Below, piece after piece: positions 192 to 9,110 of a DNA stretch of 24,000 bases (position 1 is its first letter; each line of letters opens with the position of its first letter). The translations under genes were made by a program, and so were the position numbers. Below the pieces are notes generated by a model. That model saw nothing but the letters and a program-made list of their open reading frames with translations, was not told the origin of the DNA and did not search any database. This stretch comes from Gracilimonas amylolytica. Lineage in GTDB: Bacteria > Bacteroidota > Rhodothermia > Balneolales > Balneolaceae. The stretch spans positions 10,002 to 34,001 of the forward strand of contig NZ_PQBS01000019.1 of NCBI RefSeq assembly GCF_002911695.1, read 5' to 3'.

Positions 192-1478
192 ATGAAAAAA
201 TACAACTATTCTGAATTATCACCGGAAGAGATCAGAGAGCTGCTGAAGCGGCCAAAAATTGATTTTAGCTCCATATTCCAAACGGTTCAACCCATAATTG
301 AAGCTGTTGAAGAAGAGGGCGATTCTGCCGTGATCCGATATACGGAGCAATTTGATGGTGTGAAACTGAATGAGGTCACGTTGGATCCAAATGATGTTAA
401 GGTTCAGATAGACGCCTCGGTCAAAGAGGCCATAGATATTGCGTTCAGTAATATTTCCCAATTTCATAGGGCCCAGCAGGCACCGGACCTGCATGTGGAA
501 ACCATGCCGGGTGTGCGGTGCTCAAAAGTGAGTCGCCCGATCCAACGTGTTGGACTGTATATTCCCGGTGGAACCGCCGTTCTGCCTTCCACGGCGATGA
601 TGCTGGCTATTCCTGCCATGATCGCGGGTTGCACAACAAAAGTGTTAGCAACACCGCCCAAGAAAGATGGAAGTGTGGCACCGGAGATCATTTACATTGC
701 CCAGAAAGCCGGGATCAATACGATACTTTTAGCCGGTGGTGCCCAGGCTGTGGCAGCATTGGCTGTGGGAACCGAAAGTGTGCCCAAAGTGGACAAGATC
801 TTTGGGCCGGGAAATCAATATGTGACAGCGGCGAAAATGATCCTTCAAAATTCGGAGGCTCAGATCAGTATTGACATGCCGGCCGGGCCTTCTGAAGTTC
901 TGGTCATTGCCGATGCTGAAGCCAATCCTGCTTATGTTGCAGCCGACTTGCTGTCTCAGGCAGAACACGGAAGTGACAGTCAGGTAGTTTTGGTAGCCAC
1001 TGAAGATTTTGACATGAATGAATTGGAGCATGAACTAAAAACCCAACTCAACGAGCTTCCCCGAAAAGAAATGGCAACCGGGGCTTTGGATAACAGTTTC
1101 AGCCTTGTGGTGAAGTCGCTTGATGAGGCTTTTGAGTTTTCAAATCAGTATGCGCCCGAGCATTTAATTGTGAATGTGAAAGAAGCTGAATCGTATGTGG
1201 ATGAGATCATCAATGCGGGGTCGGTCTTCCTGGGACAGTTGACCCCGGAAAGTGTGGGGGATTATGCTTCCGGCACTAATCACACATTGCCAACTTATGG
1301 GTATGCCCGCATGTACAGCGGGGTGAATCTGGCCGCTTTTCAGAAATCAGTGACCATGCAATCTCTTACAGAAGAAGGGTTGAAAAATGTGGGTCCTGCA
1401 GTGGAAATACTGGCGGAATTAGAAGAACTTCAGGCGCATAAAAATGCCGTCAGCCTTCGGTTGAAGAATATCGAATAG
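192..1478 (+). CDS. hisD: Histidinol dehydrogenase
   Basis: The 428-aa ORF shows HisD hallmarks: [40 protein letters not shown] and AHKNAV near the C-terminus. It is in an operon with hisG and hisC. Confidence 0.95.
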
Positions 1479-1507
1479 TGAATAAAGGAATATTGAATTT
1501 GAAGTTG
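1463..1507 (+). repeat. Degenerate GAA-phased heptad tract spanning the hisD stop codon
   Basis: The sequence reads GAAGAAT atc GAATAGT GAATAAA g GAATATT GAATTT GAAGTTG. The hisD TAG (1476-1478) lies inside the unit GAATAGT. The tract includes the exact 13-mer AAGGAATATTGAA (1485-1497). Confidence 0.5.
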
Positions 1508-1516
1508 TAATAACAC

Positions 1517-1613
1517 CGGAATAGAACAAGGATGACGCAGATTTAGCAGATGATCGCTGATATAAATTTAGATCTTTGGGCATGCGTAAAAGGCGCTTCA
1601 TCCGCGTTTCAAT
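1517..1613 (+). repeat. Intercistronic hairpin-forming repeat element, copy 1 (hisD-hisC spacer)
   Basis: It aligns by eye with 2722-2820: CGGaATaGAACaaGGATGAcGCaGATTT...AGAT...CGCtGATATAAATTTA ... CATCCGCGTTtCAAT. The terminal arms GGATGACGC and GCTTCATCC are inverted. The GCWGAT motif recurs within it. Confidence 0.7.
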
Positions 1614-4495: not shown

Positions 4496-5254
4496 ATGAT
4501 ACTATCCAAATCCAAAGCCTGTTTACTTTCACTGTTTTTACTGCTTCTTTCGGGAACAGTTTTGGCACAGAATGCATCCGAGATCGTGAAGAAAATGGAT
4601 GAAAAAATGCGGGGGGAATCGCTGGAAGCCGAGGTTACCATGACTATTGTCAGGCCGGATTGGAGTCGGGAAGTATCCATGAAGAGCTGGAGTCGCGGTT
4701 CAGAATACTCAATGATCTTGATCACAGCCCCTGCCCGCGATAGGGGTACCGCTTTTCTTAAACGAGGTAACGAAATTTGGAACTGGATCCCGAATGTGGG
4801 AAGAACCATAAAAATGCCACCATCAATGATGATGCAGTCATGGATGGGCTCTGATTTCACCAATGATGACCTGGTTCGTGAATCGTCTGCTGTGACAGAT
4901 TATGAGCATGAACTGGTTGGGGAAGAAACGATTCAGGGGTACGAGTGCTATAAGATCGAAATGACCCCCAAACCGGATGCCCCGGTTGTATGGACGAGAG
5001 TGGATGTGTGGATCTCAAAGGAAGAATACATCGAATTAAGAGCAGAGTTTTATGATGAATTCGGGGAATTGATCAATGTGATGAATGGCATGGATGTGAA
5101 GGATTTTAACGGGCGGCAGATACCCTCACGCATGGAAATGATCCCAATGGATAAAGAAGGCCATATGACAATACTTGAATACAGATCTATGGAATTCAAT
5201 GAAAACATCTCTGAAAGATTCTTTAGCGTGCAGAATATGAGAAGAGTTCAGTGA
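4496..5254 (+). CDS. LolA-like outer-membrane lipoprotein-sorting protein (secreted)
   Basis: The 252-aa ORF has a signal peptide (LLLLSGTVLAQ) followed by the pattern typical of the LolA_like family: W.W.P....I......Q.WMGSDFTNDDL, CYKIEM.PK, and a C-terminal FS...M.R. Confidence 0.75.
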   Translation: MILSKSKACLLSLFLLLLSGTVLAQNASEIVKKMDEKMRGESLEAEVTMTIVRPDWSREVSMKSWSRGSEYSMILITAPARDRGTAFLKRGNEIWNWIPNVGRTIKMPPSMMMQSWMGSDFTNDDLVRESSAVTDYEHELVGEETIQGYECYKIEMTPKPDAPVVWTRVDVWISKEEYIELRAEFYDEFGELINVMNGMDVKDFNGRQIPSRMEMIPMDKEGHMTILEYRSMEFNENISERFFSVQNMRRVQ

Positions 5255-5283
5255 TCAGTTATCAGTGAACAGTGATCAGTACC
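5249..5283 (+). repeat. Heptamer tract T1: CAGTGAT CAGTTAT CAGTGAA CAGTGAT CAGTACC
   Basis: Five tandem 7-nt units share CAGT and an A at position 6. The first unit encodes the last codon (CAG) and the TGA stop (5252-5254) of the LolA-like gene. Confidence 0.9.
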
Positions 5284-5328
5284 CAAAGTATATTATAACT
5301 TGATTGTTGAATCCAGTTCGGCCAGCTT

Positions 5329-5398
5329 CTGCTAACTGCTAACTGCTAACTGCTAACTGCTAACTGCTAACTGCTAACTGCTAACTGCTAACTGCTAA
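5329..5398 (-). repeat. Heptamer tract T2: perfect (CTGCTAA)x10, which is (CAGTTAG)n on the minus strand
   Basis: Ten exact tandem copies were counted base by base (5329-5335 through 5392-5398). The tract is the reverse-complement orientation of T1. It provides the last codons and the TAG stop (5388-5390) of the minus-strand four-helix-bundle ORF. Confidence 0.95.
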
Positions 5399-5753
5399 TC
5401 CTAGTCGTTTTTAATATGGAAAATAGAATTCTGCAAAGTTCATCTGCATCGTCATGCATACTATTAAACGTCTTAGAATTTATAAAATCAGTATCATACA
5501 ATAGGTTTAGCCAATACTTTGTTTCTAAAGATTCTTTGTATGCAATGGAAATTTTAGATGAAAAATCAGCTTTTGAAATGGCACCATTGGCTTCAGATAT
5601 ATTTGCGCCAATACTGGTTCCACATCGAAGTAACTGTTTTGAAAGCATAAATTAACGTTATTCTTTACTTAAGAATTGATATCCTTTAACAACCCGAATT
5701 GCAAATGCATATGCTTTTTTAGAATTAATGATGGATTACATTGTAAGAGCCAT
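5388..5753 (-). pseudogene. Four-helix-bundle protein gene (23S rRNA-intervening-sequence protein / Avd-like family) interrupted by three in-frame TAA codons
   Basis: The remaining 86-aa ORF (5388-5648) reads LSKQLLRCGTSIGANISEA..SKADF..KISIAYKESLETKYWLNLL, the core of this family. The same frame upstream reads MALTM*SIINSKKAYAFAIRVVKGYQFLSKE*R*F and then that ORF, which is the expected N-terminal helix. It is broken by TAA codons at 5736-5738, 5658-5660 and 5652-5654. The region is visibly more AT-rich than its neighbours. Confidence 0.7.
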
Positions 5754-5796
5754 TAAATCCAAAATCCTTACAGAATTTTTTAAAACATATGTAAAA

Positions 5797-5831
5797 CTGT
5801 TTACTGATCACTGTTAACTGCTCACTGAAAA
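5797..5831 (-). repeat. Heptamer tract T3: CTGTTTA CTGATCA CTGTTAA CTGCTCA CTGAAAA (minus strand: CAGTGAG CAGTTAA CAGTGAT CAGTAAA CAGTTTT)
   Basis: Five 7-nt units are in the same phase and orientation as T2 and inverted relative to T1. The tract ends 6 nt before the ATG of the first FtsX permease gene. Confidence 0.85.
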
Positions 5832-5837
5832 ACGAAC

Positions 5838-7067
5838 ATGTTATATCTAAAATTAGCCTGGCGGAATATCTGGCGGAATAAGAGGCGCACGTTCATAACG
5901 ATGCTATCAATTATTGTGGCCGTCATGCTCTCGTCAGTTATGAGGACGATGAACGAAGGTTCCTATGAGCAGATGATCGAAAATACGGTCGGCATCTTTA
6001 CCGGTTATGTACAAATACATCAAAAAGGGTACTGGGACGACAAGACACTCGAAAACACGTTGGTTTCTTCAGACACACTGTTCCAGATCATTGCCCAAAC
6101 TCCCGGCATTACAAAAGCAGTTCCAAGAATTGAATCCTACGCTTTGGTAGCAGGAGAGAACCAAAGCCGAGCCGCTATGGTCATCGGCATAGATCCTGAA
6201 AAAGAAAGGTCTTTAAGTGATCCTCAAAACCGGATCGTTACAGGTTCCTATTTTGAAGATTTAAATGAGCGATCGGTCCTTTTGGGAACCGACTTGGTGC
6301 AGAGACTTGAGCTACAGGTAGGAGACAGCCTTGTGATGATCGGGCAGGGATTCAGAGGACAAAGCGCAGCCGGATTATACGAAGTGAAAGGAACCGTGCG
6401 GTTTCCAAATCCGGAAATGAATAAAAGCCTGGTTATGATGCCACTCGGAACGGCTCAGTTCTTTTTAGCCGCTCCCGACAGACTTACTGGGATCTCACTT
6501 ATTATTGAGGATTCTGATGACGCAGAATCGGTTACAAAGATACTATCGGGTTATTTATCGAGCGAGGATTATGAGGTCATGGACTGGAAGGAACTGATGC
6601 CTGAGTTGGTTCAGGCCATTGAGTCGGATCGGGGCAGTGGGTTAATCATTATCATGATATTGTATGTGGTTGTTGGTTTTGGAATACTGGGAACCGTTCT
6701 CATGATGATCACGGAACGCACTTACGAATTCGGTGTGATGATATCGGTAGGAACATCAAGGTTTGCAATTGCGATGATGCTGGCCTTTGAGGTCTTACTC
6801 ATGGCCATGGCAGGGTCACTCGTTGGTATTGTTGCCTCCTATCCAATTTCATACTACTTCCACATAAATCCGATCCGTTTGTCAGACAGTGGAGACATGG
6901 CACAGGTTATTGAGACATTCGGTATGGAACCGGTCCTTCAGTTTTCACTTGAACCTTCACTATTCTACTCTCAGGCCATCATCATTTTTGTGATCACCCT
7001 GATCTTTTGCCTCATACCTATTCTTAAAGCCAGTCGGTTGAATCCTGTTAAAGCGATGAGGTCCTGA
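5838..7067 (+). CDS. ABC transporter permease, FtsX/MacB-LolCE type
   Basis: The 409-aa ORF has an N-terminal L.LAWRNIWRNKRRT motif and TM1, a ~230-aa periplasmic domain, then three C-terminal TM helices. It ends with ..A.RL.PV.AMR, as FtsX-family permeases do. Confidence 0.9.
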   Translation: MLYLKLAWRNIWRNKRRTFITMLSIIVAVMLSSVMRTMNEGSYEQMIENTVGIFTGYVQIHQKGYWDDKTLENTLVSSDTLFQIIAQTPGITKAVPRIESYALVAGENQSRAAMVIGIDPEKERSLSDPQNRIVTGSYFEDLNERSVLLGTDLVQRLELQVGDSLVMIGQGFRGQSAAGLYEVKGTVRFPNPEMNKSLVMMPLGTAQFFLAAPDRLTGISLIIEDSDDAESVTKILSGYLSSEDYEVMDWKELMPELVQAIESDRGSGLIIIMILYVVVGFGILGTVLMMITERTYEFGVMISVGTSRFAIAMMLAFEVLLMAMAGSLVGIVASYPISYYFHINPIRLSDSGDMAQVIETFGMEPVLQFSLEPSLFYSQAIIIFVITLIFCLIPILKASRLNPVKAMRS

Positions 7068-7068
7068 T

Positions 7069-8301
7069 ATGCTGAAATATATCCTGAAACTTGGCTGGAA
7101 GAATGTCTGGAGAAATCCCACACGAAGTGGTGTAGTGATCATCACCGTGCTGCTTGGAACCTGGGCCGGTATCTTTGCCACCGGTTTTTTTAATGGAATG
7201 CTGAATGATTATATCAAGGGACAGATAAATTTGACGGTGGGTCATGTTCAGATCATGTATCCGGAGTTTGAAGATCTATACAATCCGAATTATGCCATCC
7301 CGAATGCTGAGAACCTAATAAGAACACTGCAGGTAAACCCGGATGTGGATGAGGTATCGGGTAAAAGTGTGGCAACCGGACTGGCGCAAAGTGCGCGAAA
7401 CAGTTTTGGGGTCACAATATGGGGTATGGATATTGAGAATGACACCTCTGTTTCGGTGCGTTCCATTAAAGGGTATCTGGAAGAGGGAGACTTTCCGGAA
7501 GCTGAAAATCGAAATCAGATACTGATTGGAGATGACTTGGCCGAAAGACTTGGCCTGGAGTTGCGCTCCCGAATGGTATTAAGTTTTCAGGATGTAAGTG
7601 GAGACCTCACGGCTGGTGCGTTCCGGGTAGCCGGCATTTTTGACAGTTTTGATAGCCGGTTTGATGAGAACTTCGTGGTGGTCAATAAAGCCGATCTGAA
7701 CCGTATTTTAGGAGGGAAAAACTTAACCCATAACATCCGTATTGATACAGACGATCTGATGACAGCCGGTGTACTTGCTGAACAGCTTCAGGATTCGAAT
7801 CCGGACCTTGAGGTGAAAAGCTGGAGGGAGATCGCCCCGGATTTAAGGTATGTTTTTGATATGCAGGATCTGTCCCTGTATTTGGTGATGATCATAATCA
7901 TCATTGGTCTGATCTTTAGCATCATCAATACTATGCTGATGGCCGTGATGGAGCGAACCCGCGAACTTGGTATGCTGCGTGCTATTGGTATGAATAAAAG
8001 CCGAACCTTTAGTATGGTCATGCTTGAGACGGTGTTCCTGACCCTGGTTGGATCACCGGTAGGTTTGCTTCTCGGTTGGTTAACGATCACATATTTTGGG
8101 GCTAGCGGGATCGACCTCAGTGCTTTTTCTGAGGGACTGGAAGGATGGGGTTTTACAACCATGATCTATCCATCACTGGCTTTGAAATACTATTTGAATA
8201 TTGTGCTTTTTGTGGCTGTAGCAGCCTTGATCTCGGCACTGTATCCGGCCTGGCGGGCACTTCAATTGAGACCTGTTGAAGCAATACGAAAATTTAACTA
8301 A
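7069..8301 (+). CDS. ABC transporter permease, FtsX/MacB-LolCE type (second copy)
   Basis: The 410-aa ORF has the same architecture (LGWKNVWRNPTRS, MERTRELGMLRAIGM, ..A.RALQLRPVEAIR). Its ATG is 1 nt after the stop of the preceding gene. Confidence 0.9.
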   Translation: MLKYILKLGWKNVWRNPTRSGVVIITVLLGTWAGIFATGFFNGMLNDYIKGQINLTVGHVQIMYPEFEDLYNPNYAIPNAENLIRTLQVNPDVDEVSGKSVATGLAQSARNSFGVTIWGMDIENDTSVSVRSIKGYLEEGDFPEAENRNQILIGDDLAERLGLELRSRMVLSFQDVSGDLTAGAFRVAGIFDSFDSRFDENFVVVNKADLNRILGGKNLTHNIRIDTDDLMTAGVLAEQLQDSNPDLEVKSWREIAPDLRYVFDMQDLSLYLVMIIIIIGLIFSIINTMLMAVMERTRELGMLRAIGMNKSRTFSMVMLETVFLTLVGSPVGLLLGWLTITYFGASGIDLSAFSEGLEGWGFTTMIYPSLALKYYLNIVLFVAVAALISALYPAWRALQLRPVEAIRKFN

Positions 8302-8341: not shown

Positions 8342-9064
8342 ATGCCAACACAGAACGGAAATAACATGTCTGTAATACGAACAGAAGGGTTGACCAAAGT
8401 ATATAATCCGGATCAGGTACCGGTTCATGCCCTGAACGGTGTGGATCTTACCATTGAAAAAGGTGAATTCACTGCCATTGTCGGCCCATCCGGTTCAGGT
8501 AAAACCACCCTATTGAATATCATTGGTGGCCTGGATGAACCGACCGGGGGGAAAGCCTTTATCAGAGGGACAGACATCAGCACCCTTTCTGACCGTGAGT
8601 TGATCAACTTCAGGCTCAATCATATTGGGTTTGTATTTCAATCCTTTAATTTGATCCCGGTTCTTACTGCCCTCGAGAATGTGTCGTTCATCATGCAGAT
8701 GCAGGGAAGGCCGGCAAAAGAATGCCGTGAAAAAAGTATAGAGCTTTTAGAGGAAGTTGGTCTTAAAGACAAGATCAATAAACGTCCCTCAGAATTATCA
8801 GGAGGACAGCAGCAGAGGGTAGCAGTGGCCAGGGCTTTGGCATCCAAACCCGATTTTGTCCTGGCTGATGAACCGACGGCCAATCTTGATTCTGTTTCCA
8901 CAGCCGAATTACTGGATATGATGGCGGAATTGAATGAGGTGGAGGATATGACGTTCATATTTTCGACTCATGACCAAAGGGTGATCGATAGAGCGAGGCG
9001 GGTCATTACACTTGTGGATGGGAAAATTGATTCGGATGAAGAGAGAACAGTGGACAGTGGATAG
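8342..9064 (+). CDS. ABC transporter ATP-binding protein (LolD/MacB-type)
   Basis: It has Walker A GPSGSGKTT, a Q-loop, the signature LSGGQQQRVAVARAL, Walker B FVLADEPT and an H-loop STHD. The true start may be the internal ATG at 8366 (MSVIRTEGLTKVY). Confidence 0.95.
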   Translation: MPTQNGNNMSVIRTEGLTKVYNPDQVPVHALNGVDLTIEKGEFTAIVGPSGSGKTTLLNIIGGLDEPTGGKAFIRGTDISTLSDRELINFRLNHIGFVFQSFNLIPVLTALENVSFIMQMQGRPAKECREKSIELLEEVGLKDKINKRPSELSGGQQQRVAVARALASKPDFVLADEPTANLDSVSTAELLDMMAELNEVEDMTFIFSTHDQRVIDRARRVITLVDGKIDSDEERTVDSG

Positions 9065-9110
9065 TAAACAGTAAACAGTAAACAGTAAGCAGTGATCAGT
9101 GTTTAGTTTG
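9048..9110 (+). repeat. Heptamer tract T4: CAGTGGA CAGTGGA TAGTAAA CAGTAAA CAGTAAA CAGTAAG CAGTGAT CAGTGTT TAGTTTG
   Basis: Nine 7-nt units are in the same orientation as T1. Units 1-3 encode the last residues (..VDSG) and the TAG stop (9062-9064) of the ABC ATPase. Confidence 0.9.

Follow-up and report, generated by a model that had tools for sequence, protein, structure and literature searches.

Background

Intervening sequences (IVSs) of 23S rRNA, found in Coxiella burnetii, Leptospira, Brucella and Haemophilus, are inserted in helix 25 or 45. Their terminal inverted repeats pair into a stem of ∼28 bp, and the loop holds a decay-prone open reading frame (ORF) of the S23p family (TIGR02436) that has the same orientation as the host transcript. 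Cleavage by RNase III has been demonstrated experimentally for the IVS of Leptospira, as well as for that of Coxiella. To our knowledge, the function of S23p/TIGR02436 proteins has remained unsolved since the early 1990s, as have the origin of the rRNA IVSs and the excess of heptameric repeats in bacteria. In Coxiella, three to four tandem GACAGAT heptamers, the copy number of which varies between strains, lie upstream of the S23p ORF, and RNase III cuts within the 28-bp terminal stem, with the 5′ cut falling where the first repeat begins (PMC4990558). The S23p protein of X. campestris is cited in that paper as a homopentameric toroid (cited in PMC4990558). Here we describe a comparable arrangement in 24,000 nt of DNA from Gracilimonas amylolytica (Balneolaceae; contig NZ_PQBS01000019.1, positions 10,002–34,001 of the forward strand; this whole stretch is hereafter the window). 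Between a LolA-like gene and the first of two ftsX permease genes, positions 5247–5831 of the window probably constitute a decayed IVS-type cassette in an mRNA operon, composed of a ∼117-codon S23p/TIGR02436 gene, encoding a four-helix-bundle (4HB) protein, and two inverted arrays of ∼4–5 heptamers.

Heptameric repeats have been described in several other settings. The cyanobacterial STRR units CCCCAGT, TTGGTCA and CAACAGT, from work by Mazel in 1990, reportedly share a CAGT/CAAT core. Direct TAACTGA repeats are found in Beggiatoaceae, Cyanobacteria and some Bacteroidetes, and a role in translational regulation has been proposed for them (MacGregor 2015, PMC4679880). In Xanthomonas, GGGAATC heptamers occupy intergenic sites genome-wide, including 70–75 convergent inverted pairs, and the bacterial excess of heptameric repeats has been called unexplained (PMC4692102). 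The GGGAATC and STRR repeats are intergenic arrays like those described here, but no cargo gene has been described for them, and they have hitherto been read as G-quadruplex or fingerprinting repeats.

Two further kinds of element share single features with the locus. Avd of the diversity-generating retroelements has the four-helix-bundle fold and the PF05635 domain of the window gene, and acts together with a reverse transcriptase and with template/variable repeats; we know of no heptamer arms associated with Avd. No reverse transcriptase domain was found among the window ORFs of at least 130 amino acids, which sets the locus apart from these retroelements. Repetitive extragenic palindromic sequences and bacterial interspersed mosaic elements (REP/BIME), as well as MITEs (miniature inverted-repeat transposable elements), are small intergenic inverted repeats between co-transcribed genes and resemble the ORF-less hairpins at loci L026, L042 and L005 of our collection (see below). 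The heptamer cassettes differ from REP/BIME and MITEs in their element-specific tandem 7-mer arms, in the conserved protein gene that many of them carry, and in that no RAYT or other transposase partner was identified.

Structure of the cassette

The LolA-like gene (4496–5254, plus strand; PF17131, Pfam E-value 1.1e-60) and the first FtsX/MacB-type permease gene (5838–7067, plus strand; PF12704 and PF02687) form the upstream and downstream hosts. The product of the former is 100% identical to the Gracilimonas amylolytica protein P0121. From the LolA-like stop codon to the ftsX ATG there is a gap of 583 nt (5255–5837), the size given in an earlier, sequence-only reading of this DNA, and the GC content of the spacer is 0.30–0.35 vs 0.44–0.49 in the flanking genes. 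Three heptamer tracts lie in or at the edge of this spacer. T1 (5249–5283, listed also from 5247; plus strand) comprises five CAGTNAN units, CAGTGAT CAGTTAT CAGTGAA CAGTGAT CAGTACC, the first of which supplies the final codon and the stop codon of the LolA-like gene (CAG TGA, with TGA at 5252–5254). T3 (5797–5831, listed also from 5796) comprises five such units on the minus strand, CAGTGAG CAGTTAA CAGTGAT CAGTAAA CAGTTTT, which read on the plus strand as AAAACTG TTTACTG ATCACTG TTAACTG CTCACTG (pattern NNNACTG). T2 (5329–5398) is a perfect (CTGCTAA)x10 tract, corresponding to (CAGTTAG)x10 on the minus strand (10.0 copies with 100% matches by TRF), and is a direct repeat of the T3 motif placed just past the stop codon of the 4HB gene. 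A two-unit pattern of this heptamer, CAGTNANCAGTNA, occurs 17 times in the window vs 0.01 occurrences expected from shuffles.

A repeat finder returned the arms as 5247–5280 and 5796–5829, 34 nt each, 85% complementary and 515 nt apart, comparable in extent with the terminal inverted repeats of ∼25–30 bp that enclose the 23S IVSs. On either strand, the minimum free energy fold and the centroid fold are both closed by pairing of T1 with T3 (z-scores −3.1 and −6.7). The sequence-only reading had placed and transcribed all three tracts exactly, had correctly counted 6/7, 6/7, 6/7, 5/7 and 4/7 matches between the units of T1 and those of the reverse complement of T3, and had proposed an imperfect stem of ∼30 bp with a loop of ∼510 nt, which agrees with the arms and folds found here. 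For the 4HB gene, which runs on the minus strand, T3 forms the 5′ arm and T1 forms the 3′ arm.

The minus-strand gene between T2 and T3 (5388–5735) matches PF05635 with 94.8 bits (cut-off 33.8) over profile positions 7–105 of 106, and TIGR02436 with 101.7 bits (cut-off 24), so that the remnant of a four-helix-bundle gene seen in the sequence-only reading is indeed one. Its extent as a pseudogene follows from these profile matches and from alignment to L190, a metagenomic contig almost identical to the window over the gene they share, which carries an intact 117-codon 4HB gene and served as the reference for decay. Compared with L190, the window copy has lost its start codon and first nine codons to a 29-nt deletion between AAAAAGCAT direct repeats (junction at ∼5711–5721), and has acquired in-frame TAA nonsense codons at 5658–5660 and 5652–5654 (AAA>TAA and GAA>TAA). 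No intact member of the family is therefore encoded, and the residual ORF of 86 amino acids (5388–5648) is the sole part annotated by NCBI (P0042). Since the near-identical L190 gene is intact while the window gene has both the deletion and two TAA codons, the window gene is a recent pseudogene. An alternative genetic code was considered as an explanation of the in-frame TAA codons and rejected; L190 has sense codons at both sites, and the window start codon has been deleted outright. T1 and T3 have drifted to their present 85% complementarity in what is now a dead cassette.

Intact relatives of the gene are strongly conserved: an alignment of 30 sequences drawn from several phyla has 44 invariant columns. 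The nearest solved structure is PDB 2RLD, deposited with five chains, which an ortholog matches at 3.8e-33. None of the PADLOC defence-system models matches the 4HB protein.

The resemblance to 23S rRNA IVSs that was claimed from the sequence turns out to be stronger than had been supposed, as the Coxiella IVS has tandem heptamers at its 5′ end and each arm of the window cassette comprises five CAGTNAN units. In both, the loop is occupied by an ORF belonging to one family, the terminal inverted repeats are alike, and both ORFs are subject to decay. The differences are that the window cassette lies in the spacer of a protein-coding operon, with no rRNA detected by Rfam, that its ORF is antisense to the host genes, and that the direct T2 satellite is an extra feature. 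With the TAACTGA repeats (PMC4679880) the window shares the heptamer itself, TAACTGA being the reverse complement register of CAGTTAT; those repeats are intergenic and often lie a few nucleotides upstream of a start codon, as T3 does, ending 6 nt before the ftsX ATG (5838). This placement next to a start codon fits the TAACTGA type, and the spacers of orthologs end in ACTGAAA(A)ATG. Indels in 7-nt steps and a patchy phylogeny are further common traits of the TAACTGA repeats and the arrays described here, but the published work on TAACTGA (PMC4679880) describes direct repeats only, with neither a link to 4HB genes nor inverted pairing.

Leader and Expression Signals

Copies at the LolA-like/ftsX junction of Balneolaceae have a leader of 70–150 nt and are often antisense. 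Between the 5′ arm and the 4HB start, the leader contains the motif TGTAAGGA, located in the window at 5765–5772 on the minus strand. Every Balneolaceae junction copy, in either orientation, has it 60–150 nt upstream of the start of the 4HB gene (the window, L003, L006, L011, L013, L016, L017, L171 and L188). TGTAAGGA does not match the sigma-70 consensus, and a sigma-70 promoter scan of the spacer gave no matches above chance. No terminator was found in the spacer, and Rfam returned nothing in 5100–6000 at E≤1 and nothing across the window at gathering score.

The T2 Satellite

T2 is not an arm but a direct copy of the arm motif expanded by slippage. Its copy number ranges from 2 to 15 among Gracilimonas, with 10 copies in the window, 8 in L190, 15 in L188, at least 7 in L002 and 2 in L003. 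Four independent short-read contigs of close relatives (L002, L190, L191 and L192) stop in T2 or just before it; the array systematically breaks assemblies at this locus.

Orthologous LolA-like/ftsX Junctions

Seventy-seven orthologous LolA-like/ftsX junctions were collected from genome assemblies. The spacer is shorter than 30 nt in 38 of them, 30–100 nt in 14 and 100–250 nt in 13, none of which has a 4HB gene, whereas 10 of the 12 spacers longer than 250 nt contain one. The presence/absence polymorphism that had been predicted for the junction therefore exists, with 4HB genes in either orientation at 10/77 junctions and spacers below 100 nt at 52/77. Minus-strand copies occur in G. tropica (intact in strain DSM 19535), Fodinibius and several metagenome-assembled genomes of Balneolaceae, and plus-strand copies in four others.

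An empty site consisting of a single heptamer tract, also anticipated by the sequence-only reading, is found at L012, where (ACTGAAC)x11 spans the spacer from stop codon to start codon, and a similar gene-less tract of four heptamer units is present at L004. L012 groups among L011 and L013, both of which bear the gene and have one ACTGAAC unit to the left of the cassette, direct with respect to the right-hand array; because of this arrangement, deletion between direct units explains the loss of the cassette from L012. Replacement at the fixed site is seen on comparing L015 with L016, in which the host genes are 87–91% identical while the 4HB proteins are 52% identical, have opposite orientations and are accompanied by different arm motifs; the outermost unit beside ftsX retains its ACTG core in both, although the inner units of L015 are of the AATTG type. 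Short inverted heptamer hairpins without a gene occupy the junction at L005, L042 and L026.

Most of the best database matches to the window 4HB protein are likewise encoded at the LolA-like/ftsX junction, in one orientation or the other, and 4HB divergence at the junction roughly parallels that of the host genes. Judged from these comparisons, the cassette is an old resident of the junction in Balneolaceae. Of the proposal that an IVS-like sequence had been inserted into the operon, the assignment to the IVS type thus stands, and the notion of a recent insertion does not; the cassette is long resident in the family and has only lately been inactivated in the window. Recent mobility had also been considered on the grounds that identical proteins occur on many contigs (P0055 and P0048), and was rejected, as every copy lies at the LolA-like/ftsX junction.

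Related structures occur elsewhere in the orthologous operons. The Saprospiraceae locus L026 has ORF-less inverted heptamer hairpins (5241–5275/5884–5915, 6743–6848 and 8077–8146) at two junctions, LolA-like/ftsX1 and ftsX1/ftsX2, and to either side of a TetR-like gene, with one motif throughout (unit ATGAACG/ATGAATG). Distant 4HB genes (30–35% identity) are located between ftsX2 and the ABC ATPase gene at L015 (10057–10401) and L057 (5048–5356), the former with 22-nt inverted arms and no obvious period of 7.

Generality of the Cassette Architecture

Across phyla, 4HB genes as a rule lie between inverted heptamer arrays of co-evolving sequence. Eighty metagenomic loci encoding the 4HB subfamily were examined, TRF was run on 161 sequences, and 91 4HB genes from genomes and metagenomes were surveyed for period-7 tracts within 200 nt. 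Such tracts flank both sides of the gene in 61/91 cases, the upstream side only in 10, the downstream side only in 13 and neither in 7, so that at least one tract lies beside 84 of the 91 genes. The TRF rows with period 7 number 308, compared with 33, 89 and 99 for periods 6, 8 and 9. Within 4HB-bearing loci, 171 of 245 period-7 tracts are at most 150 nt from the gene, in flanks that make up 6% of bases, and a tract is held by 32/46 spacers adjoining a 4HB gene vs 79/469 others (odds ratio 11, p 2e-13). The suspicion that heptamer tracts would be enriched beside 4HB genes is thereby borne out in this sample of 4HB-bearing loci.

The arms mostly adjoin the ORF (2–50 nt) and take up the space that separates it from the genes on either side (median gaps 51 and 67 nt). 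Among the metagenomic loci, cassette and upstream gene are co-oriented in 58/60 cases, and the cassette is never antisense to both neighbours; a typical cassette therefore rides its host operon in sense, with no room for a promoter of its own, much as in rRNA operons. The arm–gene–arm plan is also found in Gracilimonas sp., in Hymenobacter, where a 4HB gene with 80% identity is flanked by a Wzi-like gene and the gene of an ABC exporter, and in Runella, between UDP-glucose dehydrogenase and epimerase genes. Cassettes of this plan with highly similar 4HB genes are carried by plasmids of Euhalothece, Bernardetia and Nostoc. The one in Nostoc punctiforme (L195, pNPUN01 160221–165532), with arms GTCGGAG/CGACCTC, adjoins xisH/xisI, a tyrosine recombinase gene and Tn7-like tnsA/tnsB; a common phylogenetic distribution of TAACTGA repeats and XisH/XisI has been noted (MacGregor 2015, PMC4679880).

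The heptamer varies from element to element (CAGTTAT, AATTACG, AAGAGTT, AAAAGGT, AAGGATT, GTCGGAG and others). Upstream and downstream units are reverse-complementary within one mismatch in 44/61 elements (72%) vs 13% of non-self pairs. For 57 stems, 92.3% of cells pair vs 44.7% after partners were shuffled between elements, and the covariation score is 1.108 vs 0.217, a value reached by 0/500 shuffles; as the stems had been picked as best local pairings, the shuffle is a meaningful control. The median stem is 29.5 bp, and the arms of L083 are near-perfect. Arms mostly have 3–5 units, with a modal exact-core count of 4, and the upstream arm is A/G-rich on the sense strand of the gene. An AATT/ATTA core is common to more than half of the units, with AATT in 35/71 upstream units (9.8 expected) and ATTA in 28/71 (9.6 expected). 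The arm unit is shared by 64% of pairs whose proteins are at least 75% identical, compared with 7% of pairs below 60%; because arm-unit similarity tracks that of the 4HB proteins, the arms belong to the element and not to the host site. The idea of a pentameric protein matching five repeats per arm was also considered; with the modal core count of four and the range of 3–5, it is speculation only.

A full-text search, which covered few subscription journals, found no literature linking heptamer repeat families to 4HB genes beyond the description of the Coxiella IVS, and did not turn up the pattern of 4HB genes with inverted heptamer arrays.

Other Repeats in the Window and Related Loci

A further CAGTNAN array of ∼8 units, with the same motif as the cassette arms, lies at 9046–9101 on the plus strand, across the stop codon of the ABC ATPase gene, the last residues of which it encodes. 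It has no inverted partner and was overlooked in the sequence-only reading. A second period-7 motif, GAATANN, forms an array of ∼5 units that begins at the hisD stop codon (window 1466–1600) and is followed by a repeat, ggaatagaaca.ggat.acgcag.tttagc..., that also fills the LolA-like/ftsX spacer of G. halophila (L001 6745–6850). Similar GAATANN arrays start the ftsX2/ABC spacers of relatives (L001 9290–9330, L003 9735–9780 and L005 9340–9400). In G. halophila, G. tropica and Balneola sp. this spacer is 320–380 nt long vs 40 nt in the window, and it contains a conserved GC-rich, structured-looking block (cctccccgaaag...ggtccctcc...; L001 9330–9600, L003 9790–10030 and L005 9420–9640) with no counterpart in the window; the block could represent a non-coding RNA or some other small element.

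Proposed Mechanism and Alternative Explanations

If 5247–5831 is a cassette of the IVS type, its arms would pair into a duplex of ∼30 bp in any transcript that spans it, as suggested by the folds and by the lack of a detectable terminator. By analogy with the rRNA members in Coxiella and Leptospira, RNase III would cut this duplex, and the cut would excise the cassette RNA and leave the lolA-like mRNA separate from that of ftsX-ftsX-ABC. In the DNA, gain, loss, inversion and exchange of cassettes could proceed by homology or slippage between the heptamer arrays themselves, in place of a transposase. T2 is a replication-slippage expansion of the arm motif.

Several observations weigh against this interpretation. 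The window cassette is antisense to its operon, an orientation atypical for the class; the evidence for cleavage is confined to the rRNA copies of the IVS; and the cassette at the junction is mostly inherited vertically, so that mobility there must be rare. Mismatches in the arms show no G:U bias (44 in 4HB-sense RNA, 46 in antisense RNA and 86 other), and selection at the RNA level is therefore not demonstrated. The best pairing register reaches 87% vs 81% at shifts of 7 or 14 nt, a comparison biased by the choice of the best, and with so small an advantage the arms behave as arrays of a single motif and not as a unique stem. Likewise, the mismatches between T1 and T3 in the window fall at the free N positions of CAGTNAN, which conservation of the motif would fit equally well.

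These last properties of the arms are also what would be expected if the arrays were putative binding sites on single-stranded RNA or DNA for a ring-shaped 4HB oligomer or a host factor, analogous to those of TRAP or HutP, the inverted arrangement arising only because each arm carries the same motif array. We regard this as unlikely, though it accommodates the partly conserved AATT/ATTA core as well as the free N positions, the barely specified register and the lack of G:U bias, along with the co-variation of the arm motif with the 4HB protein clade, the usual 3–5 units per arm, the five chains of 2RLD and the toroid cited for X. campestris (in PMC4990558). It fits less well with a modal core count of four in place of five, and with a protein that is highly conserved, with 44 invariant columns, when the units differ so widely; ORF-less inverted hairpins are a further difficulty, although such hairpins could be targets in trans of a 4HB protein from another locus. 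Less probable still is a conventional non-autonomous MITE-like transposon, whose arms would be terminal inverted repeats for a transposase encoded elsewhere. The inverted terminal structure, the AT-richness relative to the host, the presence/absence and replacement polymorphism and the dispersal over unrelated intergenic sites and plasmids would all suit such an element, but inspection by eye of clean examples showed no target-site duplication outside the arms, the arms consist of tandem repeats whose copy number varies and whose ends are not fixed, and no multi-copy near-identical elements were seen, the exact proteins found on many contigs being all at one locus. No transposase, integrase or reverse transcriptase was found in the 24-kb window, in agreement with the sequence-only reading, which had reported none nearby.

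An invertible switch, in which recombination between the arms would flip an internal promoter or the 4HB gene and so modulate ftsX-ABC expression, is very improbable. Both orientations do occur at the junction within the Balneolaceae 4HB clade, where the sense copy L171 is nested among antisense copies, and the leader motif flips with the gene; orientation, however, differs only between species and never within one population sample, the change between L015 and L016 is a replacement and not a flip, and no invertase is encoded nearby. That the tracts are there by coincidence, as ordinary intergenic simple-sequence repeats or TAACTGA-type translational signals, is scarcely credible. Solo arrays without a 4HB gene (window 9046–9101, L004 and L012) and the abutment of T3-type arrays on start codons, as in the TAACTGA repeats (PMC4679880), are compatible with such an origin, but it is already contradicted by the 11-fold enrichment at the level of spacers, with a tract beside 84/91 genes, by the element-specific complementarity of the arms and by the co-inheritance of motif and protein. 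An IVS-type cassette in an mRNA operon remains the interpretation we prefer for this part of the window.

Significance

The locus and its ∼100 relatives tie together three long-standing questions, namely the function of S23p, the origin of the IVSs and the over-representation of heptamers, and make them testable in culturable organisms. The same gene with heptamer arms is found between ordinary genes in Balneolota, Bacteroidota and Cyanobacteria, and undergoes turnover at a fixed site with no transposase. In practical terms, the arrays break short-read assemblies. The architecture also offers a concrete explanation for several orphan families of heptamer repeats. It is possible, and we suggest it tentatively, that 4HB genes with inverted heptamer arms form one widespread class of transposase-less, operon-riding elements, of which 23S rRNA would be the best-known insertion site; solo or shed arms would then be the source of the STRR, TAACTGA and GGGAATC repeats, and a ring-shaped 4HB protein might recognize the arrays and drive their processing or exchange. 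Should the IVS-type interpretation prove true, such cassettes would split operon transcripts that annotation pipelines take as continuous.

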